Source: Escherichia coli (GTDB lineage Bacteria > Pseudomonadota > Gammaproteobacteria > Enterobacterales > Enterobacteriaceae). From it: a stretch of DNA of 37,733 nucleotides. The position numbers and the translations under genes are program-made. Each line of letters opens with the position of its first letter. Within the stretch, counting starts at the first letter, position 1. Under the pieces are notes generated by a model. The model saw only the letters and a list, made by a program, of their open reading frames with translations. It was not told the origin of the DNA and did not search any database. This document shows positions 1,924 to 14,122 of the stretch, piece by piece. The stretch lies in assembly GCF_003334355.1 (NCBI RefSeq), contig NZ_QOWP01000034.1; one strand, given 5' to 3'.

Positions 1924-3243
1924 ATGGATATCTGCTCCCGAAACGAGAAATTAGCGATTAGAAGACCGGCGATACTGGTTGCACTGGCACTTTTACTGTG
2001 TAGTTGTAAAAGCACGCCTCCAGAGTCCATGGTGACACCACCAGCGGGTTCAAAGCCACCAGCCACGACGCAACAATCGTCACAACCGATGCGTGGCATC
2101 TGGCTGGCCACGGTGTCTCGCCTCGACTGGCCACCGGTTTCCTCGGTTAACATTAGTAACCCCACCAGCCGGGCCCGTGTACAAAAACAGGCGATGATCG
2201 ACAAACTGGATCATCTGCAACGTCTCGGTATAAACACGGTCTTTTTCCAGGTCAAGCCGGACGGTACCGCCCTGTGGCCATCGAAAATTTTGCCGTGGTC
2301 CGATCTTATGACCGGTAAGATTGGTGAAAATCCGGGTTACGATCCGCTGCAATTTATGCTCGACGAAGCCCACAAGCGTGGGATGAAAGTACACGCCTGG
2401 TTTAACCCCTATCGCGTATCGGTTAATACGAAGCCCGGTACTATCAGGGAACTGAATAGCACTCTGTCTCAACAACCGGCGAGCGTCTATGTGCAACACC
2501 GCGACTGGATCAGAACGTCTGGCGATCGCTTTGTCCTCGACCCGGGCATCCCTGAGGTTCAGGACTGGATCACATCAATAGTCGCAGAAGTGGTTTCCCG
2601 CTATCCCGTAGATGGCGTGCAGTTTGACGACTATTTCTATACGGAGTCACCGGGTTCACGGCTAAATGATAACGAAACGTACCGTAAATACGGAGGCGCA
2701 TTTGCGTCAAAAGCAGACTGGCGGCGCAACAATACTCAGCAGTTAATTGCAAAGGTATCGCACACCATTAAAAGCATTAAGCCGGGAGTCGAATTTGGTG
2801 TTAGCCCGGCAGGCGTGTGGCGTAACCGATCACACGATCCGCTCGGTTCCGATACCCGAGGCGCGGCAGCCTATGACGAATCCTACGCTGACACCCGTCG
2901 ATGGGTGGAACAAGGATTGCTGGATTACATTGCTCCCCAAATTTACTGGCCGTTCTCACGGAGTGCCGCGCGTTATGACGTGTTGGCAAAATGGTGGGCG
3001 GATGTCGTTAAACCGACCAGGACCCGCCTGTATATCGGTATCGCCTTCTATAAAGTGGGTGAACCTTCAAAGATAGAGCCAGACTGGATGATTAACGGCG
3101 GCGTACCGGAACTGAAAAAGCAGCTCGATCTTAACGATGCTGTGCCCGAAATTAGCGGCACCATCTTGTTCCGTGAGGACTATCTGAATAAACCGCAGAC
3201 TCAACAAGCGGTCAGCTATCTGCAAAGTCGCTGGGGCAGTTAA
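1924..3243 (+). CDS. yddW: Lipoprotein glycoside-hydrolase-like protein (YddW; I recall it also being called DigH, a divisome-associated glycosyl hydrolase)
   Basis: 439-aa ORF with an N-terminal signal peptide and Cys-containing lipobox-like segment (LALLLCSCKS). Length and sequence match E. coli YddW. The exact start codon was not verified. Confidence 0.85.
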   Translation: MDICSRNEKLAIRRPAILVALALLLCSCKSTPPESMVTPPAGSKPPATTQQSSQPMRGIWLATVSRLDWPPVSSVNISNPTSRARVQKQAMIDKLDHLQRLGINTVFFQVKPDGTALWPSKILPWSDLMTGKIGENPGYDPLQFMLDEAHKRGMKVHAWFNPYRVSVNTKPGTIRELNSTLSQQPASVYVQHRDWIRTSGDRFVLDPGIPEVQDWITSIVAEVVSRYPVDGVQFDDYFYTESPGSRLNDNETYRKYGGAFASKADWRRNNTQQLIAKVSHTIKSIKPGVEFGVSPAGVWRNRSHDPLGSDTRGAAAYDESYADTRRWVEQGLLDYIAPQIYWPFSRSAARYDVLAKWWADVVKPTRTRLYIGIAFYKVGEPSKIEPDWMINGGVPELKKQLDLNDAVPEISGTILFREDYLNKPQTQQAVSYLQSRWGS

Positions 3244-5013: not shown

Positions 5014-7413
5014 ATGAAGCTAACCGATGCGGATAATGCCGCCGATGGCATTTTTTTCCCCGCCCTTGAGCAAAATATGATGGGTGCGGTGTTAATTAAC
5101 GAAAATGATGAAGTGATGTTTTTCAACCCCGCCGCAGAGAAGCTCTGGGGATACAAACGTGAAGAAGTCATTGGCAATAACATTGATATGCTGATTCCGC
5201 GGGATTTGCGTCCTGCGCATCCTGAATACATTCGTCACAACCGTGAAGGCGGTAAAGCGCGTGTTGAGGGGATGAGTCGGGAGCTGCAGCTGGAGAAAAA
5301 AGACGGCAGTAAAATCTGGACCCGTTTTGCGCTATCGAAAGTGAGCGCCGAGGGGAAAGTTTATTACCTGGCGCTGGTACGGGATGCCAGCGTAGAAATG
5401 GCGCAAAAAGAACAGACCCGACAATTGATTATTGCCGTTGACCATCTCGACCGACCGGTGATTGTCCTCGATCCGGAACGCCATATTGTGCAGTGCAATC
5501 GCGCATTTACCGAAATGTTTGGTTACTGCATTAGCGAAGCCAGCGGTATGCAGCCCGATACACTCCTGAACATTCCTGAATTCCCTGCCGATAACCGCAT
5601 TCGTTTACAACAGTTGCTATGGAAAACCGCCCACGATCAGGACGAATTTCTGCTGTTGACGCGCACCGGTGAAAAAATCTGGATTAAAGCCTCTATCAGC
5701 CCGGTTTATGACGTGCTCGCGCATCTGCAGAACCTGGTAATGACTTTCTCGGATATCACCGAAGAACGGCAGATTCGCCAGCTTGAAGGCAATATTCTCG
5801 CCGCCATGTGCAGCAGCCCGCCATTTCATGAAATGGGGGAAATCATTTGTCGTAACATCGAATCTGTACTCAACGAATCGCATGTTTCGCTGTTCGCACT
5901 GCGCAACGGGATGCCGATACACTGGGCGTCATCTTCCCACGGTGCAGAAATTCAAAATGCGCAAAGCTGGTCAGCGACCATTCGTCAGCGTGATGGCGCG
6001 CCTGCGGGGATCCTGCAAATTAAAACCTCGTCAGGAGCAGAAACCAGCGCCTTTATCGAACGCGTGGCAGATATCAGCCAGCATATGGCCGCGCTGGCGC
6101 TGGAACAGGAAAAAAGCCGTCAGCATATTGAACAACTCATCCAATTTGATCCGATGACCGGTCTGCCAAATCGCAATAACCTGCACAATTACCTCGATGA
6201 CCTGGTCGACAAAGCCGTCTCTCCCGTGGTGTATCTCATCGGTGTTGACCATATTCAGGATGTGATTGATAGCCTTGGCTATGCGTGGGCCGATCAGGCA
6301 TTGCTGGAAGTGGTCAATCGCTTTCGTGAAAAACTCAAACCGGATCAGTATCTCTGTCGTATCGAAGGTACGCAGTTTGTCCTCGTGAGCCTCGAAAACG
6401 ACGTCAGTAACATTACCCAAATCGCCGATGAGCTACGGAATGTGGTCAGCAAGCCGATAATGATTGACGATAAACCCTTCCCGCTTACCTTGAGTATTGG
6501 CATCAGCTACGACCTGGGTAAAAACCGCGATTACTTGCTCTCCACTGCTCACAATGCAATGGATTATATTCGCAAGAATGGCGGTAACGGCTGGCAGTTC
6601 TTCAGCCCGGCGATGAACGAAATGGTAAAAGAGCGTTTGGTTTTAGGCGCAGCGCTGAAAGAAGCGATTAGCAATAACCAACTGAAACTGGTTTACCAGC
6701 CGCAAATATTCGCAGAAACGGGTGAACTGTACGGCATCGAAGCCCTTGCTCGCTGGCACGATCCCCTGCATGGTCATGTGCCCCCTTCACGGTTTATTCC
6801 TCTCGCAGAAGAGATTGGTGAAATCGAAAATATTGGGCGCTGGGTCATCGCGGAAGCTTGCCGTCAGTTAGCAGAATGGCGTAGCCAGAATATTCATATC
6901 CCGGCGTTATCCGTGAACTTGTCGGCGCTGCACTTTCGCAGTAATCAACTGCCTAATCAGGTGTCTGATGCAATGCACGCCTGGGGTATTGACGGCCACC
7001 AGCTGACGGTAGAAATCACGGAAAGCATGATGATGGAACACGATACCGAAATCTTTAAGCGCATTCAGATCCTGCGTGATATGGGCGTGGGCTTATCGGT
7101 AGATGATTTTGGTACGGGCTTTTCCGGATTATCCCGCTTAGTCAGTCTTCCGGTAACGGAAATCAAAATTGACAAAAGTTTTGTCGATCGTTGTCTGACC
7201 GAAAAACGCATCCTTGCCTTACTTGAAGCCATTACCAGCATTGGGCAAAGCCTCAATTTAACCGTCGTGGCGGAAGGCGTCGAAACCAAAGAGCAATTTG
7301 AGATGCTACGCAAGATCCACTGTCGCGTTATTCAGGGATATTTCTTTTCCCGCCCCCTACCCGCCGAAGAAATTCCAGGCTGGATGAGCAGCGTGTTACC
7401 GCTGAAAATCTGA
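5014..7413 (+). CDS. dosP: Heme-PAS oxygen-sensing c-di-GMP phosphodiesterase (PAS-PAS-GGDEF-like-EAL)
   Basis: 799 aa from ATG 5014 (MKLTDADNAADGIFFPALEQ...). EAL motif (YGIEALARW) in the C-terminal domain. The ORF-track start at 4990 is an upstream in-frame extension that overlaps the dosC stop. Confidence 0.93.
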   Translation: MKLTDADNAADGIFFPALEQNMMGAVLINENDEVMFFNPAAEKLWGYKREEVIGNNIDMLIPRDLRPAHPEYIRHNREGGKARVEGMSRELQLEKKDGSKIWTRFALSKVSAEGKVYYLALVRDASVEMAQKEQTRQLIIAVDHLDRPVIVLDPERHIVQCNRAFTEMFGYCISEASGMQPDTLLNIPEFPADNRIRLQQLLWKTAHDQDEFLLLTRTGEKIWIKASISPVYDVLAHLQNLVMTFSDITEERQIRQLEGNILAAMCSSPPFHEMGEIICRNIESVLNESHVSLFALRNGMPIHWASSSHGAEIQNAQSWSATIRQRDGAPAGILQIKTSSGAETSAFIERVADISQHMAALALEQEKSRQHIEQLIQFDPMTGLPNRNNLHNYLDDLVDKAVSPVVYLIGVDHIQDVIDSLGYAWADQALLEVVNRFREKLKPDQYLCRIEGTQFVLVSLENDVSNITQIADELRNVVSKPIMIDDKPFPLTLSIGISYDLGKNRDYLLSTAHNAMDYIRKNGGNGWQFFSPAMNEMVKERLVLGAALKEAISNNQLKLVYQPQIFAETGELYGIEALARWHDPLHGHVPPSRFIPLAEEIGEIENIGRWVIAEACRQLAEWRSQNIHIPALSVNLSALHFRSNQLPNQVSDAMHAWGIDGHQLTVEITESMMMEHDTEIFKRIQILRDMGVGLSVDDFGTGFSGLSRLVSLPVTEIKIDKSFVDRCLTEKRILALLEAITSIGQSLNLTVVAEGVETKEQFEMLRKIHCRVIQGYFFSRPLPAEEIPGWMSSVLPLKI

Positions 7414-7426
7414 CAAATTCCTCTCG

Positions 7427-7444
7427 CCCGCACTCGCGGGTTTT
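7427..7444 (+). terminator. Short GC hairpin plus T-tract after dosP (CCCGC-ACTC-GCGGG-TTTT)
   Basis: Read from the sequence, 14 nt after the dosP stop. The stem is only 5 bp, so strength is modest. Confidence 0.55.
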
Positions 7445-7610
7445 CATTTAACGTGACACTGTCACTTAAATACTGTGATTTCAGCTACGATTCCGGGAGA
7501 TTCCTTCCTTAACTTCCCCTCTTGCACCAAAACTGCACTACGCTGCACAAATGTTGATCAAAAGTTAAAAAATATAACTTTAAGCCAGCATTCTGGCGCT
7601 TATCCCGGCA

Positions 7611-7626
7611 TGGCATGAGATCTGCA
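7611..7626 (+). promoter_or_regulatory. Sigma-54 (RpoN) -24/-12 type promoter upstream of ddpX (TGGCAT-N5-CTGCA)
   Basis: TGGCATGAGATCTGCA has GG and GC separated by exactly 10 nt, matching the sigma-54 consensus TGGCACG-N4-TTGCA at most positions. Located 45-60 nt upstream of the ddpX ATG. A GCAC-rich cluster at 7523-7549 resembles NtrC-type enhancer half-sites. Confidence 0.6.
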
Positions 7627-7670
7627 TAAGCGGAAAGCGCAGCAATTTTTGTCTTATACAGGAACCGTTT

Positions 7671-8252
7671 ATGTCGGATACCACCGAACTGGTTGATTTA
7701 GCCGTAATCTTCCCTGATCTGGAGATCGAATTGAAATACGCCTGCGCTGATAACATCACAGGTAAAGCTATTTATCAGCAAGCGCGTTGTCTGTTACACA
7801 AGGATGCGATTACCGCGCTGGCGAAAAGTATCAGCATCGCCCAGCTGTCAGGGTTACAACTGGTGATTTACGATGCGTATCGCCCACAACAAGCACAGGC
7901 GATGTTGTGGCAAGCCTGCCCAGACCCGCAATATGTTGTTGATGTGACGGTCGGTTCTAATCACAGCCGTGGCACGGCGATCGACCTGACGCTTCGTGAT
8001 GAGCACGGGAACATCCTCGATATGGGCGCAGGGTTCGATGAAATGCACGAGCGCTCCCATGCCTATCACCCTTCCGTCCCGCCCGCCGCTCAGCGCAATC
8101 GGCTGTTGCTGAATGCGATAATGACTGGTGGCGGTTTTGTCGGTATCTCCAGCGAATGGTGGCACTTCGAATTACCCCAGGCAGCGAGTTACCCTCTGCT
8201 CGCTGATCAATTCTCTTGTTTTATATCCCCTGGCACACAGCACGTCAGTTAA
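7671..8252 (+). CDS. ddpX: D-Ala-D-Ala dipeptidase (VanX homolog, Zn-dependent)
   Basis: 193-aa ORF. The SNHSRGTAIDLT and EWWHFE segments are typical of the VanX/DdpX family. First gene of the ddp operon. Confidence 0.93.
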   Translation: MSDTTELVDLAVIFPDLEIELKYACADNITGKAIYQQARCLLHKDAITALAKSISIAQLSGLQLVIYDAYRPQQAQAMLWQACPDPQYVVDVTVGSNHSRGTAIDLTLRDEHGNILDMGAGFDEMHERSHAYHPSVPPAAQRNRLLLNAIMTGGGFVGISSEWWHFELPQAASYPLLADQFSCFISPGTQHVS

Positions 8253-8265
8253 TCAGGAAACTGTC

Positions 8266-9816
8266 ATGAAGAGATCGATATCGTTTCGTCCCACATTGCT
8301 CGCGCTCGTCCTTGCCACAAATTTCCCGGTTGCGCACGCCGCCGTACCAAAAGATATGCTGGTGATTGGTAAGGCCGCCGATCCACAAACCCTCGACCCG
8401 GCGGTAACAATAGATAATAACGACTGGACAGTGACCTACCCGTCTTATCAGCGGCTGGTTCAGTACAAAACGGACGGTGATAAAGGCTCAACCGACGTTG
8501 AAGGCGATCTGGCAAGTAGCTGGAAAGCGTCTGACGATCAAAAAGAGTGGACGTTCACCCTGAAAGATAATGCTAAATTTGCCGATGGCACACCTGTCAC
8601 TGCCGAAGCAGTAAAACTTTCTTTTGAGCGGCTACTAAAAATCGGCCAGGGGCCAGCAGAAGCATTTCCCAAAGATTTAAAGATTGATGCTCCCGACGAA
8701 CATACGGTGAAGTTTACCCTTAGCCAACCATTCGCACCGTTCCTCTACACGCTGGCGAATGACGGTGCATCCATTATCAATCCGGCGGTCTTAAAGGAAC
8801 ATGCAGCGGATGATGCTCGCGGCTTCCTCGCGCAAAATACCGCCGGTTCCGGACCATTTATGCTGAAAAGCTGGCAAAAAGGTCAGCAATTAGTTCTGGT
8901 GCCAAATCCGCATTACCCAGGCAATAAACCGAACTTCAAACGGGTATCGGTAAAAATTATTGGTGAAAGTGCCTCCCGTCGCCTGCAGCTCTCCCGTGGC
9001 GACATTGACATTGCCGATGCGCTGCCGGTGGATCAACTCAACGCCCTGAAGCAGGAAAATAAAGTCAATGTGGCAGAGTATCCGTCACTGCGCGTTACCT
9101 ATCTGTATCTGAATAACAGCAAAGCGCCTCTTAATCAGGCGGATCTGCGTCGGGCCATTTCCTGGTCTACCGATTATCAGGGCATGGTTAACGGCATTCT
9201 GAGTGGTAACGGAAAACAGATGCGCGGCCCGATTCCGGAAGGCATGTGGGGCTACGATGCGACGGCAATGCAATACAACCATGACGAAACGAAAGCCAAA
9301 GCCGAATGGGATAAAGTGACGAGCAAACCCACCAGCCTGACGTTTCTCTACTCCGATAACGATCCGAACTGGGAGCCTATTGCTCTGGCGACACAATCCA
9401 GTCTCAACAAGCTGGGCATCATTGTGAAGCTGGAAAAGCTGGCGAACGCCACCATGCGCGACAGAGTGGGTAAAGGTGATTACGACATTGCGATTGGCAA
9501 CTGGAGTCCGGATTTTGCCGACCCGTATATGTTTATGAATTACTGGTTTGAGTCAGACAAAAAAGGTCTGCCGGGTAACCGCTCGTTCTATGAAAACAGT
9601 GAGGTCGATAAGTTACTGCGCAATGCGCTTGCGACCACCGACCAGACGCAGCGTACCCGGGACTACCAGCAGGCACAGAAAATCGTCATTGATGACGCTG
9701 CTTATGTGTACCTGTTCCAGAAAAACTACCAACTGGCGATGAACAAAGAGGTGAAAGGCTTTGTGTTCAATCCCATGCTGGAACAGGTCTTCAATATCAA
9801 TACCATGAGTAAATAA
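8266..9816 (+). CDS. ddpA: Periplasmic dipeptide-binding protein of ABC transporter (family 5 SBP)
   Basis: 516 aa from ATG 8266, with signal peptide MKRSISFRPTLLALVLATNFPVAHAA. The ORF-track start at 8128 is an upstream extension that overlaps ddpX. Confidence 0.93.
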   Translation: MKRSISFRPTLLALVLATNFPVAHAAVPKDMLVIGKAADPQTLDPAVTIDNNDWTVTYPSYQRLVQYKTDGDKGSTDVEGDLASSWKASDDQKEWTFTLKDNAKFADGTPVTAEAVKLSFERLLKIGQGPAEAFPKDLKIDAPDEHTVKFTLSQPFAPFLYTLANDGASIINPAVLKEHAADDARGFLAQNTAGSGPFMLKSWQKGQQLVLVPNPHYPGNKPNFKRVSVKIIGESASRRLQLSRGDIDIADALPVDQLNALKQENKVNVAEYPSLRVTYLYLNNSKAPLNQADLRRAISWSTDYQGMVNGILSGNGKQMRGPIPEGMWGYDATAMQYNHDETKAKAEWDKVTSKPTSLTFLYSDNDPNWEPIALATQSSLNKLGIIVKLEKLANATMRDRVGKGDYDIAIGNWSPDFADPYMFMNYWFESDKKGLPGNRSFYENSEVDKLLRNALATTDQTQRTRDYQQAQKIVIDDAAYVYLFQKNYQLAMNKEVKGFVFNPMLEQVFNINTMSK

Positions 9817-9817
9817 C

Positions 9818-10840
9818 GTGACCTTCTGGAGTATTTTACGCCAACGCTGCTGGGGGCTGGTGCTCGTGGTGGCGGGCGTCTGCGTGATTACGTTTATTAT
9901 CTCGCATCTGATCCCTGGTGATCCGGCGCGGTTACTGGCGGGTGACCGCGCCAGCGATGCTATCGTGGAAAATATTCGCCAGCAACTGGGACTGGACCAG
10001 CCACTGTATGTACAGTTTTACCGCTACGTCAGCGACCTGTTTCATGGTGACCTGGGAACATCCATTCGTACCGGGCGTCCGGTGCTGGAAGAGTTGCGTA
10101 TATTTTTCCCGGCGACGCTGGAGCTGGCTTTTGGTGCCCTGCTGCTGGCACTCCTGATTGGCATCCCGCTGGGCATACTCTCTGCAGTCTGGCGAAATCG
10201 CTGGCTGGATCATCTGGTGCGAATAATGGCCATTACCGGAATCTCCACACCTGCGTTCTGGCTTGGGCTGGGCGTCATTGTGCTGTTTTATGGTCATCTG
10301 CAAATTCTTCCCGGCGGCGGAAGGCTTGATGACTGGCTGGATCCACCAACGCACGTTACCGGCTTTTATCTGCTCGATGCGCTGCTTGAAGGCAACGGTG
10401 AAGTCTTCTTCAATGCGTTGCAACATCTCATCTTACCGGCATTAACGCTGGCGTTCGTTCACCTGGGAATTGTCGCTCGCCAGATCCGCTCAGCGATGCT
10501 GGAACAATTGAGTGAAGACTACATTCGTACCGCCCGGGCCAGCGGCTTGCCCGGCTGGTATATCGTTTTATGTTATGCGCTACCCAATGCGTTGATCCCA
10601 TCGATTACCGTATTGGGTTTGGCGCTGAGCGATTTGTTGTATGGCGCAGTGCTCACCGAAACCGTTTTTGCCTGGCCCGGAATGGGTGCATGGGTAGTAA
10701 CATCAATACAGGCGCTCGACTTCCCGGCAGTGATGGGCTTTGCCGTCGTGGTTTCATTTGCTTATGTGCTGGTCAACCTGGTGGTGGATTTGCTCTATTT
10801 GTGGATTGATCCGCGTATCGGACGTGGAGGTGGTGAATGA
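9818..10840 (+). CDS. ddpB: ABC transporter permease (DppB/OppB-like)
   Basis: 340-aa hydrophobic ORF with GTG start 1 nt after the ddpA stop. Permease signature region present. Confidence 0.9.
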   Translation: MTFWSILRQRCWGLVLVVAGVCVITFIISHLIPGDPARLLAGDRASDAIVENIRQQLGLDQPLYVQFYRYVSDLFHGDLGTSIRTGRPVLEELRIFFPATLELAFGALLLALLIGIPLGILSAVWRNRWLDHLVRIMAITGISTPAFWLGLGVIVLFYGHLQILPGGGRLDDWLDPPTHVTGFYLLDALLEGNGEVFFNALQHLILPALTLAFVHLGIVARQIRSAMLEQLSEDYIRTARASGLPGWYIVLCYALPNALIPSITVLGLALSDLLYGAVLTETVFAWPGMGAWVVTSIQALDFPAVMGFAVVVSFAYVLVNLVVDLLYLWIDPRIGRGGGE

Positions 10841-11733
10841 TGCTAAGCGAGGAAACGTCCGCCGTACGCCCACAAAAACAAACGCGATTTAACGGTGCAA
10901 AACTGGTATGGATGCTGAAAGGCAGTCCGCTCACCGTGACCAGCGCAGTCATCATTGTATTAATGCTATTGATGATGATTTTTTCACCGTGGCTGGCGAC
11001 GCATGATCCCAACGCCATTGATTTAACCGCCCGCCTTTTGCCGCCTTCTGCGGCGCACTGGTTTGGCACCGATGAAGTGGGACGCGATCTGTTTAGCCGC
11101 GTACTGGTCGGCAGTCAGCAATCAATTCTCGCCGGATTAGTCGTGGTTGCCATTGCGGGTATGATTGGTTCGCTACTCGGATGTCTATCCGGTGTGCTTG
11201 GCGGACGCGCAGACGCCATCATCATGCGCATCATGGACATTATGCTGTCGATTCCTTCGTTGGTACTGACAATGGCACTGGCTGCCGCTCTCGGGCCGAG
11301 TTTGTTTAACGCCATGCTGGCTATTGCTATTGTGCGAATTCCCTTTTATGTGCGCCTGGCGCGGGGGCAAGCATTAGTTGTACGCCAGTATACCTATGTT
11401 CAGGCGGCGAAAACCTTTGGCGCGTCTCGTTGGCATCTGATCAACTGGCATATTTTACGTAACTCCCTACCGCCGCTGATCGTGCAGGCATCGCTGGATA
11501 TCGGTAGCGCGATTTTAATGGCCGCCACGTTGGGATTTATTGGCCTGGGTGCTCAACAACCGAGTGCTGAATGGGGCGCGATGGTAGCAAATGGTCGCAA
11601 CTATGTACTCGATCAGTGGTGGTATTGCGCATTTCCGGGGGCAGCGATTTTGCTTACCGCCGTCGGGTTTAATCTCTTTGGTGATGGTATTCGCGATCTG
11701 CTTGACCCGAAAGCAGGAGGAAAGCAGTCATGA
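10837..11733 (+). CDS. ddpC: ABC transporter permease (DppC/OppC-like)
   Basis: 298-aa hydrophobic ORF. Its ATG overlaps the ddpB stop (ATGA). Confidence 0.9.
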   Translation: MMLSEETSAVRPQKQTRFNGAKLVWMLKGSPLTVTSAVIIVLMLLMMIFSPWLATHDPNAIDLTARLLPPSAAHWFGTDEVGRDLFSRVLVGSQQSILAGLVVVAIAGMIGSLLGCLSGVLGGRADAIIMRIMDIMLSIPSLVLTMALAAALGPSLFNAMLAIAIVRIPFYVRLARGQALVVRQYTYVQAAKTFGASRWHLINWHILRNSLPPLIVQASLDIGSAILMAATLGFIGLGAQQPSAEWGAMVANGRNYVLDQWWYCAFPGAAILLTAVGFNLFGDGIRDLLDPKAGGKQS

Positions 11734-12716
11734 CCCAACCCGTTCTGGACATTCAACAACTGCATTTGAGTTTCCCCGGTTTTAACGGTGATGTTCACGC
11801 GCTCAACAATGTGTCCTTGCAGATTAACCGCGGTGAAATTGTCGGTCTGGTGGGAGAATCCGGCTCAGGTAAATCAGTCACCGCAATGCTGATTATGCGT
11901 CTGCTACCGACGGGCAGTTATTGCGTACATCGGGGGCAGATTTCCCTGCTGGGAGAAGATGTTCTTAACGCGCGGGAAAAACAGCTTCGTCAGTGGCGCG
12001 GCGCACGAGTGGCGATGATCTTTCAGGAACCGATGACCGCCCTCAATCCGACACGTCGAATAGGTCTTCAGATGATGGACGTGATCCGCCATCATCAACC
12101 AATAAGTCGTCGGGAAGCCAGAGCTAAAGCGATTGACCTGCTGGAAGAGATGCAAATCCCGGATGCCGTGGAAGTTATGTCGCGCTATCCGTTTGAGCTT
12201 TCAGGTGGTATGCGCCAGCGGGTAATGATTGCGCTGGCATTCTCCTGCGAGCCGCAATTGATTATTGCCGACGAACCGACTACGGCGCTGGACGTCACGG
12301 TGCAGTTGCAGGTACTGCGTTTGCTTAAACATAAAGCCCGCGCCAGTGGAACTGCGGTTCTGTTCATCAGCCATGATATGGCCGTGGTGTCGCAACTGTG
12401 CGATAGCGTTTACGTGATGTATGCCGGAAGCGTAATTGAAAGCGGCGTGACGGCAGACGTTATCCATCATCCCCGGCATCCGTATACCATTGGTTTGCTG
12501 CAATGCGCACCAGAACATGGAGTACCACGCCAGCTATTACCCGCCATTCCAGGGACGGTACCAAACCTCACCCATTTGCCTGACGGCTGCGCTTTTCGCG
12601 ATCGTTGCTATGCGGCAGGTGCACAGTGTGAAAACGTCCCGGCGCTGACAGCGTGTGGTGACAACAACCAGCGCTGTGCCTGTTGGTATCCGCAGCAGGA
12701 GGTTATAAGTGTCTGA
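11730..12716 (+). CDS. ddpD: ABC transporter ATP-binding protein
   Basis: 328 aa with Walker A GESGSGKS and ABC signature LSGGMRQR. ATGA overlap with ddpC. Confidence 0.92.
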   Translation: MTQPVLDIQQLHLSFPGFNGDVHALNNVSLQINRGEIVGLVGESGSGKSVTAMLIMRLLPTGSYCVHRGQISLLGEDVLNAREKQLRQWRGARVAMIFQEPMTALNPTRRIGLQMMDVIRHHQPISRREARAKAIDLLEEMQIPDAVEVMSRYPFELSGGMRQRVMIALAFSCEPQLIIADEPTTALDVTVQLQVLRLLKHKARASGTAVLFISHDMAVVSQLCDSVYVMYAGSVIESGVTADVIHHPRHPYTIGLLQCAPEHGVPRQLLPAIPGTVPNLTHLPDGCAFRDRCYAAGAQCENVPALTACGDNNQRCACWYPQQEVISV

Positions 12717-13635
12717 CACGTTATTAACGTTACGCGACGTCCATATCAATTTCCCGGCCCGTAAAAACTGGCTTGGTAAAACTACGGAACATGTTCATGC
12801 CATTAATGGTATTGATTTACAGATCCGCCGTGGTGAAACCTTAGGGATCGTCGGCGAGTCAGGCTGCGGCAAAAGCACCCTCGCACAGCTTTTAATGGGT
12901 ATGCTGCAACCGAGCCACGGGCAGTACATCCGTTCTGGCTCACAACGCATTATGCAGATGGTGTTTCAGGACCCGCTCTCTTCGCTTAATCCGCGCTTAC
13001 CGGTGTGGCGCATCATCACAGAACCGCTCTGGATAGCTAAGCGTAGTAGTGAACAACAGCGGCGAGCGTTGGCAGAGGAGTTGGCTGTGCAGGTGGGTAT
13101 TCGTCCGGAGTATCTCGACCGCCTGCCTCATGCGTTCTCCGGCGGGCAGCGGCAACGTATCGCCATTGCCAGAGCACTCTCTTCGCAGCCTGACGTGATT
13201 GTGCTTGATGAGCCAACCTCTGCGCTGGATATCTCCGTTCAGGCGCAGATCCTCAATTTACTGGTAACGCTACAGGAAAATCACGGGCTGACCTATGTGC
13301 TGATTTCACACAATGTCTCGGTGATACGTCATATGAGCGATCGGGTGGCGGTGATGTATCTCGGGCAGATTGTAGAACTGGGCGACGCGCAGCAGGTGCT
13401 GACGGCACCTGCACATCCATACACCCGATTATTGCTGGATTCCCTCCCCGCCATTGATAAACCGCTGGAGGAAGAATGGGCATTACGTAAAACGGATCTG
13501 CCGGGAAACCGCACGTTGCCGCAAGGCTGTTTTTTCTACGAACGTTGCCCGCTGGCAACCCACGGATGTGAAGTCCGGCAATCATTAGCAATAAGGGAGG
13601 ACGGACGTGAGCTCCGGTGCTGGCGGGCGCTGTAG
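12709..13635 (+). CDS. ddpF: ABC transporter ATP-binding protein
   Basis: 308 aa with Walker A GESGCGKS and signature FSGGQRQR. GTG start preceded by AGGAGG. 8-nt overlap with ddpD. Confidence 0.92.
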   Translation: MSDTLLTLRDVHINFPARKNWLGKTTEHVHAINGIDLQIRRGETLGIVGESGCGKSTLAQLLMGMLQPSHGQYIRSGSQRIMQMVFQDPLSSLNPRLPVWRIITEPLWIAKRSSEQQRRALAEELAVQVGIRPEYLDRLPHAFSGGQRQRIAIARALSSQPDVIVLDEPTSALDISVQAQILNLLVTLQENHGLTYVLISHNVSVIRHMSDRVAVMYLGQIVELGDAQQVLTAPAHPYTRLLLDSLPAIDKPLEEEWALRKTDLPGNRTLPQGCFFYERCPLATHGCEVRQSLAIREDGRELRCWRAL

Positions 13636-13690
13636 AGATGCTAACAACGCATCAGGCATTCACGCGCCTGACGCGTCATCCGGCAATGCT

Positions 13691-14122
13691 TTACGATTTC
13701 AACTGGTAATCCAGCGTAATTTCCGCTTTCAGTACCTGAGAGACCGGGCATCCTGCTTTTGCTTTCTGGATTATGCCGTCAAAGGTAGAGGCATCAATAC
13801 CCGGCACCGCAACTTCACTCTTCAGTGCGATTTTCGTAATCGCAAAACCGGCATCCACTTTATCCAGCGACACATCGGCGGTGGTATCAATCGATGTTGG
13901 CGTGAATCCCGCTTCCCCCAGCATTAATGAAAGCGCCATTGAGAAACATGCGGCATGCGCTGCGCCAATCAGTTCTTCAGGGTTGGTTCCTTTTTCGCCT
14001 TCAAAACGCGTGTTAAATCCATACGGCTGTTGGTTCAGCACGCCACTCTCGGTGGATACTGTTCCCTTCCCGCGTTTGATATCGCCTTCCCAGTGTGCCT
14101 GACCTTTCTTATGGATTGTCAT
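13691..14122 (-). CDS. osmC: Osmotically inducible peroxiredoxin (OsmC/Ohr family)
   Basis: 143-aa ORF on the minus strand (MTIHKKGQAHWEGDIKRGKG...) with the two conserved Cys of the OsmC family. Convergent with ddpF. Confidence 0.93.
   Translation of the reverse strand: MTIHKKGQAHWEGDIKRGKGTVSTESGVLNQQPYGFNTRFEGEKGTNPEELIGAAHAACFSMALSLMLGEAGFTPTSIDTTADVSLDKVDAGFAITKIALKSEVAVPGIDASTFDGIIQKAKAGCPVSQVLKAEITLDYQLKS

Follow-up and report, generated by a model that had tools for sequence, protein, structure and literature searches.

The stretch at positions 7671-13635 of a 37,733-nucleotide piece of Escherichia coli DNA (contig NZ_QOWP01000034.1; the whole piece is referred to below as the window) is ddpXABCDF, a chromosomal E. 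coli K-12 operon. This ordinary and already known locus encodes DdpX, a dipeptidase for D-Ala-D-Ala, together with the ATP-binding cassette (ABC) importer DdpABCDF. In all likelihood, the operon is a starvation-induced module that salvages D-Ala-D-Ala derived from peptidoglycan. The module is unrelated to glycopeptide resistance. The locus was reportedly described by Lessard et al. in 1998 (Chem Biol 5:489) and by Lessard and Walsh in 1999 (PNAS 96:11028), two papers cited in PMC6403190 and PMC11514776; these authors are said to have assigned it a role in import and hydrolysis, not in resistance. A preliminary description of this DNA had likewise proposed import and hydrolysis of D-Ala-D-Ala, not resistance. 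This proposal equals the published view and fits the control of the operon by nitrogen starvation and stationary phase, with the transporter substrate read from gene context (PMC8743547, PMC4591121, PMC3173086). The literature has covered the locus, with its homology to VanX, its regulation and its role outside resistance, since 1998-2000, and standard annotation pipelines name ddp correctly.

The ddpXABCDF operon and its dipeptidase

Sequence comparisons showed that the stretch is 100% identical to ddpX-ddpA-ddpB-ddpC-ddpD-ddpF of E. coli K-12 MG1655, and its RefSeq label is ddpXABCDF. Megablast of the ddp stretch, with 5,426 complete E. coli genomes as the target set, yielded full-length matches of 100% identity between window positions 7400-13900 and K-12 strains including MG1655. 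The genes, their order, the promoter and the neighbours (dosP upstream and osmC downstream) all match the K-12 locus (b1488-b1483; formerly vanX/yddS-yddO), and nothing differs between the two. ddpX begins at base 7671, and the ddpF stop codon ends at base 13635. The six genes are as follows.

7671-8252, + strand: ddpX, 193 amino acids, zinc D-Ala-D-Ala dipeptidase (RefSeq, NCBIfam, Pfam)
8266-9816, + strand: ddpA, 516 amino acids, periplasmic family-5 substrate-binding protein
9818-10840, + strand: ddpB, 340 amino acids, GTG start, DppB/OppB-type permease
10837-11733, + strand: ddpC, 298 amino acids, D,D-dipeptide ABC transporter permease
11730-12716, + strand: ddpD, 328 amino acids, OppD/DppD-type ATPase
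12709-13635, + strand: ddpF, 308 amino acids, GTG start, OppF/DppF-type ATPase

The ddpA start is the RefSeq ATG; the mechanically derived open reading frame reaches further, to a GTG at 8128. The genes are closely packed, with gaps of 13 nt between ddpX and ddpA and 1 nt between ddpA and ddpB. Overlaps of 4 nt (ddpB/ddpC), 4 nt (ddpC/ddpD) and 8 nt (ddpD/ddpF) indicate translational coupling. The dipeptidase had been described as fused into the importer operon. This holds for the linkage of six co-directional genes in one operon and not for the proteins, since ddpX is a separate cistron 13 nt 5' of ddpA.

DdpX is predicted from its sequence to be a cytoplasmic zinc peptidase carrying the VanX active site. 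It matches Pfam PF01427 (Peptidase_M15) with an E-value of 3.9e-79 over residues 4-186 of 193, and scores 334.7 bits on the NCBIfam equivalog NF007557 'D-alanyl-D-alanine dipeptidase', above its cut-off of 176. The sole relative of DdpX with a solved structure is Enterococcus VanX (PDB 1R44, E = 1.1e-20, 77.6 bits). Alignment of the two proteins places R71, H98, D105, E162 and H165 of DdpX at R71, H116, D123, E181 and H184 of VanX, and these five positions are invariant across DdpX, VanX-A, VanX-B and VanX-F. We take H116, D123 and H184 to be the zinc ligands in the VanX structure reported by Bussiere et al. in 1998, E181 to be catalytic and R71 to stabilise the transition state. Thus, the homology of ddpX to VanX asserted in the preliminary description is borne out by the shared M15 family, by the match to 1R44 and by the same catalytic residues. 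The N-terminus of DdpX is acidic and has no signal peptide, so the protein should be cytoplasmic. Lessard et al. reportedly showed in 1998 that E. coli DdpX hydrolyses D-Ala-D-Ala in vitro. Overproduction of DdpX is harmful through destruction of the cell-wall precursor.

Comparison of the sequences places DdpX as a distant homologue, not an orthologue, of VanX. DdpX scores 93.9 bits on the NCBIfam VanX equivalog NF033115, below the cut-off of 320, and its identity to VanX is about 33-39% (38% over 153 aligned columns with 1R44). A HMMER search with DdpX of 1.84 billion cluster representatives returned 5,171 clusters at E <= 1e-3, including 190 at E <= 1e-30. The best 150 clusters all score at least 126 bits, compared with 77.6 bits for VanX; thus, many lineages are nearer to DdpX than VanX is. 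Homologues for a tree were drawn from a 50%-representative search and a second search seeded with VanX; the top 120 matches of a 90%-clustered search were all from Escherichia or Citrobacter and were unsuited to a deep tree. The neighbour-joining tree (185 trimmed columns, Kimura distances, 200 bootstraps) comprised DdpX, four close homologues, 83 representatives, 10 source-named VanX sequences (VanX-B and VanX-F among them) and the fragment from 1R44. In this phylogeny of DdpX and VanX, which the preliminary description had put forward as a check, the named VanX sequences and the Escherichia and Citrobacter DdpX sequences form separate clades, each with 100% support, and the sister pairing of both clades receives 4%. 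Adding the deeper relatives P0128, P0129 or P0132 to the DdpX clade receives at most 20% support, so the claim is limited to DdpX lying outside the VanX clade and not being sister to it. The VanX clade also carries insertions missing from the DdpX clade, namely a two-residue 'DG' and ~16-18 residues after DdpX position 90.

The two enzymes therefore resemble each other in the PF01427 family, the zinc-binding His-Asp-His, the catalytic Glu and Arg and the substrate bond that is cleaved, and differ in genomic context and control. VanX of vanA-, vanB- and vanF-type clusters stands with vanH-vanA and vanRS and is regulated by glycopeptide sensing, whereas DdpX stands with an ABC importer, as gene 1 of the ddpABCDF importer operon in E. 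coli, Citrobacter and a more distant genome (L007), and is regulated by starvation. Homologues of vanH, vanA, vanR, vanS and vanW are absent from the RefSeq annotation of the whole window. A van cluster from Paenibacillus lautus (L009), reached through a named VanX, served as the query; its order is a response regulator followed by vanW, a 2-hydroxyacid dehydrogenase, a D-Ala-D-X ligase and vanX. Translated searches (tblastn) of the window with its VanR-, VanW-, VanH- and VanA-like proteins gave nothing better than E = 0.59, and its VanX matched ddpX alone (E = 4e-22). This named VanX sits in a vanR..vanW-vanH-vanA-vanX cluster, and DdpX lacks those partners in the window. Nothing van-like emerged when the dehydrogenases and sensor proteins nearby were scanned with NCBIfam: adhP encodes a zinc alcohol dehydrogenase and maeA a malic enzyme, both of unrelated dehydrogenase families, and dosC and dosP encode cyclic di-GMP enzymes. 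The annotation of the window contains no two-component system. The lack of a vanH/vanA-type dehydrogenase or ligase, noted by eye in the preliminary description, is therefore upheld by annotation and by tblastn, and the absence of vanA, vanH and vanRS, which it had treated both as a check and as decisive for its view, extends over 37.7 kb. For resistome screens, this means that a Peptidase_M15/VanX-like match in Enterobacteriaceae is not a van determinant; DdpX and VanX are cleanly told apart by family cut-offs (94 bits vs 320) and gene context.

Importer, promoter and distribution of the operon

The preliminary description had counted a complete binding-protein, permease and ATPase set beside ddpX, and one substrate-binding protein, two permeases and two ATPases are indeed identified. 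DdpA matches PF00496 (SBP_bac_5) with E = 1.6e-100. Its N-terminus, MKRSISFRPTLLALVLATNFPVAHA/AV, resembles a Sec signal peptide with the signal-like part ending in AHA, and DdpA is the only product of the operon with an export signal. In the HMMER alignment, D416 of DdpA stands opposite the WTGD-motif Asp of Yersinia pestis DppA, a residue that presumably binds the peptide alpha-amino group in DppA. DdpC scores 624 bits on NCBIfam NF007376 'D,D-dipeptide ABC transporter permease' (cut-off 434). The best NCBIfam matches of the remaining components are DppB/Opp2B for DdpB, OppD/DppD for DdpD and DppF/OppF for DdpF, and in the Citrobacter orthologues the permeases carry PF00528 and the ATPases PF00005 and PF08352. 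The importer is thus built like DppABCDF and the Opp, Nik and Gsi importers (TC 3.A.1.5): its single binding protein is of family 5, its two permeases are of the BPD_transp_1 type and its two ATPases carry a C-terminal oligo_HPY domain. It also shares the Asp of the WTGD motif with DppA. However, every Ddp component falls below the equivalog cut-offs of those systems, and the ddp operon differs from them in having its own hydrolase gene, a sigma-54 promoter and a ligand presumed to be of D,D-stereochemistry.

The intergenic regions on both sides of the operon contain the following features.

7423-7441, + strand: intrinsic-terminator-like hairpin with T-run, just 3' of the dosP stop codon (7413)
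7523-7550, + strand: candidate region for an NtrC enhancer, with half-sites that contain TGCAC (TGCACCAAAACTGCACTACGCTGCACA), ~60-100 nt upstream of the -24 element
7610-7626, + strand: sigma-54 (-24/-12) promoter ATGGCATGAGATCTGCA, GG at 7612-7613 and GC at 7624-7625
13647-13690, no strand assigned: repetitive extragenic palindromic (REP)-like palindrome between the convergent ddpF and osmC genes, at the right edge of the indel described below

The hairpin at the end of dosP, GCCCGCACTCGCGGGT followed by TTTCATTT, has six pairs, five of them G-C, and would divide dosCP from the ddp transcription unit as a terminator-like element. A pattern scan showed that ATGGCATGAGATCTGCA has two mismatches to TGGCAC-N5-TTGCW. 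Across the window the pattern shows no enrichment (19 matches compared with ~25 expected), so the site at 7610-7626 is credible only because it equals a published one: for ddpX, chromatin immunoprecipitation sequencing (ChIP-seq; PMC4591121) gave a sigma-54 site with the identical 17-mer, at a distance of 34 nt from the gene. A generic sigma-70 promoter scan upstream of ddpX found nothing, consistent with a sigma-54 promoter. The NtrC sites at 7523-7550 are candidates that we infer from the half-sites. Binding of NtrC to a ddpX promoter probe in gel shifts, and of RpoN holoenzyme to the ddpX promoter, has been published (PMC8743547). Upon nitrogen depletion, ddpX mRNA increases 104-fold and ddpF mRNA 2.2-fold, in an rpoN- and ntrC-dependent manner (PMC8743547).

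This gap between the first and the last gene suggests strong polarity, attenuation or processing inside the operon. No internal terminators were found in the ddp operon beyond weak consensus matches, and an Rfam scan found no RNA element in or near it. RpoS dependence was reportedly described by Lessard et al. in 1998, to whom a later statement on stationary phase can apparently be traced. That statement, in a review, calls the ddp permease 'stationary phase-induced' (PMC3173086). At the other end of the operon, the palindrome at 13647-13690 folds with -25.7 kcal/mol (z = -3.9), and none of 200 shuffled sequences folds as well. From the REP consensus, we take it to be REP-like, and it is a probable 3' stabiliser or terminator.

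The operon is widespread in E. coli. By megablast, 4,272 of the 5,426 complete genomes hold at least 80% of the ddp query, and a ddp-less 'empty' allele also occurs. Alignment of the empty-site loci L003 (3094-3159) and L004 to the window set the edges of the variable segment.

7493-13646, no strand assigned: presence/absence cassette comprising the promoter region and the six ddp genes, replaced by 66 nt in the empty allele

The 66-nt filler aligns to ddpF codons 146-166, from the ABC signature to the Walker B region, with 50 of 61 positions matching (~82%), a 1-nt deletion, and 7 of the 11 substitutions at third codon positions. The alignment score of 62 compares with a maximum of 33 in 100 shuffles. 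The filler would thus be a relic of a diverged ddpF-like gene, so that the operon was lost in strains with the empty allele and not gained by K-12, which implies an old loss event. The alternative of an unrelated filler, with insertion of the operon into K-12-like strains, was rejected on the same scores (62 vs at most 33 for shuffled sequences).

Citrobacter carries the six ddp genes in collinear order, with amino-acid identities of 78-94% for the individual proteins, as does the more distant genome L007 (56-71%), and the genes flanking these modules differ from those in E. coli. Thus, the dipeptidase and the transporter are co-inherited and co-lost, which supports a shared function. In the modules of loci L005, L006 and L007, a gene of the RpiR family (HTH_6) lies 14 nt upstream of ddpX (L005:9120-9986, L006:9120-9986 and L007:6129-6986), whereas E. 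coli lacks this gene and uses NtrC and sigma-54. Searches by tblastn found no RpiR relic in the window (best E = 1.1, at an unrelated position). These comparisons suggest that the regulator changed between the genera and was rewired to NtrC/sigma-54 in Escherichia.

The surroundings of the cassette vary as well. The REP-like palindrome is kept in ddp-less genomes. In the ddp-less E. coli strain R2, dosC is a frameshifted fragment of 164 nt (L003:427-590) and dosP is intact; the dosC-ddp neighbourhood seems prone to decay in some lineages. The gene digH (1924-3243), encoding a peptidoglycan glycosyl hydrolase (GHL10), lies a few kilobases upstream of ddp and is also found in Citrobacter (L005:2595-3962), with different genes between digH and ddp in E. 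coli and in Citrobacter. DigH has no NCBIfam match at E <= 1e-10.

Proposed function and rival explanations

In the proposed mechanism, nitrogen limitation would fire the NtrC-activated sigma-54 promoter, RpoS-dependent induction in stationary phase also having been published, and from that promoter a single polycistronic message with coupled translation would arise. DdpA would leave the cytoplasm by means of its signal peptide and capture D-Ala-D-Ala in the periplasm, DdpB and DdpC would form the channel, and DdpD and DdpF would hydrolyse ATP. In this way, DdpABCDF may import D-Ala-D-Ala released by peptidoglycan turnover. Cytoplasmic DdpX would then split the dipeptide into two D-Ala, which the D-amino-acid dehydrogenase DadA, encoded elsewhere, could convert to pyruvate and ammonium. 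The known control by sigma-54 and NtrC, on which the preliminary description was silent, marks the operon out as a scavenging system for nitrogen and carbon. D-Ala-D-Ala remains the putative substrate of DdpABCDF from its gene context, and import of this dipeptide is a reasonable reading of the alignment of DdpA D416 with the WTGD motif and of the membership in the nitrogen-scavenging regulon. The transporter has been said 'to import D-alanyl-D-alanine', with earlier work cited for the statement (PMC10936423).

Several observations weigh against this assignment. The best NCBIfam scores of DdpA are 182 bits for NikA and 172 bits for DppA, both far below the cut-offs. A search of the PDB found no DdpA structure, the nearest entry being an unnamed binding protein (5u4o). 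DdpABCDF is still termed a 'putative' transporter in a review (PMC3173086), and direct evidence for its ligand was not found, the literature statements being context-based only (PMC3173086, PMC10936423). The 104-fold induction of ddpX set against 2.2-fold for ddpF may mean that expression of the dipeptidase and of the transporter is partly uncoupled. The ddp operon is down-regulated in the mouse gut (PMC10936423), and the empty allele is held by 1,117 of the 5,426 genomes (~21%). Given this down-regulation and the ddp-less genomes, the fitness contribution of the operon is conditional. A joint reading in which the label 'D-Ala-D-Ala importer' is wrong or incomplete and ddp is a dispensable, lost cassette with rewired regulation deserves some weight, though we consider it rather doubtful.

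Specificity is the point at which two other explanations part from salvage of D-Ala-D-Ala. DdpX might mainly degrade the cell's own cytoplasmic pool of D-Ala-D-Ala, for shutdown or remodelling of peptidoglycan or for lysis at starvation, with the transporter importing another peptide or peptide-like nutrient. The specificity of DdpA is putative, ddpX is induced ~50 times more than ddpF, and overproduced VanX/DdpX is lytic or potentially lethal by destroying the D-Ala-D-Ala precursor (PMC6403190, PMC11514776). Changed susceptibility to phage N4 with multicopy ddpX also fits this explanation: in overexpression screening by Dub-seq, ddpX fragments gave resistance to phage N4, as did cyclic di-GMP phosphodiesterases including the adjacent dosP (PMC7553319). 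However, tight co-inheritance of dipeptidase and transporter across genera, and their joint loss, point to one shared substrate, DdpA keeps the WTGD-motif Asp that binds the peptide amino-terminus in DppA, and membership in the nitrogen-scavenging regulon fits catabolism, so degradation of the internal pool as the main role is unlikely. The importer could also be an Opp/Dpp/Nik-family system of broad or other specificity, for D-amino-acid dipeptides, metal chelates or opine-like compounds, with D-Ala-D-Ala as one or a minor substrate. Models for NikA do give DdpA a slightly higher score than those for DppA, and among the best PDB relatives of DdpA are proteins that bind heme/AI-2 and agropinic acid (6ofq, 6hlx). 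Yet the NikA and DppA scores are all far below the family cut-offs, the curated model for DdpC is that of a D,D-dipeptide permease, and the sole enzyme of the operon, a dipeptidase, comes from a family that we take to be highly specific for D-Ala-D-Ala, which leaves such an importer a markedly smaller chance still.

A partial or cryptic van cluster, in which depletion of D-Ala-D-Ala by ddpX would lead to the use of an alternative precursor, could draw on the homology of DdpX to VanX and on their identical catalytic residues. It is hardly credible in view of the score of 93.9 bits against the VanX cut-off of 320, the position of DdpX outside the VanX clade, the absence of VanH, VanA, VanR, VanS and VanW homologues from 37.7 kb, and control by NtrC/sigma-54 and starvation that is not of the VanRS type. 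The outer membrane of E. coli already protects the cell against vancomycin.

Other features of the window

The RefSeq gene order of the left part of the window is gadC-digH-dosC-dosP, ddpXABCDF, osmC(-)-bdm-sra-maeA-adhP-yddM. The right part continues with fdnIHG(-)-yddG-yddL, narU-narZ-narH(narY)-narW-narI(narV) and yddE-nhoA(-)-yddH. The sole Rfam match is a selenocysteine insertion sequence element, SECIS_3, at 22528-22586 (- strand; 84.3 bits, cut-off 63), located at the in-frame UGA of fdnG. This gene encodes the selenocysteine-containing alpha subunit of formate dehydrogenase-N and is split by the UGA into two open reading frames on the - strand (20121-22532 and 22581-23168), a known and expected arrangement. 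At ~24000-27000, the G+C content falls to 0.33-0.40 compared with ~0.52 for the window, and the region contains yddL, a truncated porin pseudogene, and a leucine-rich-repeat gene with a frameshift; it is probably a decayed, horizontally acquired segment.

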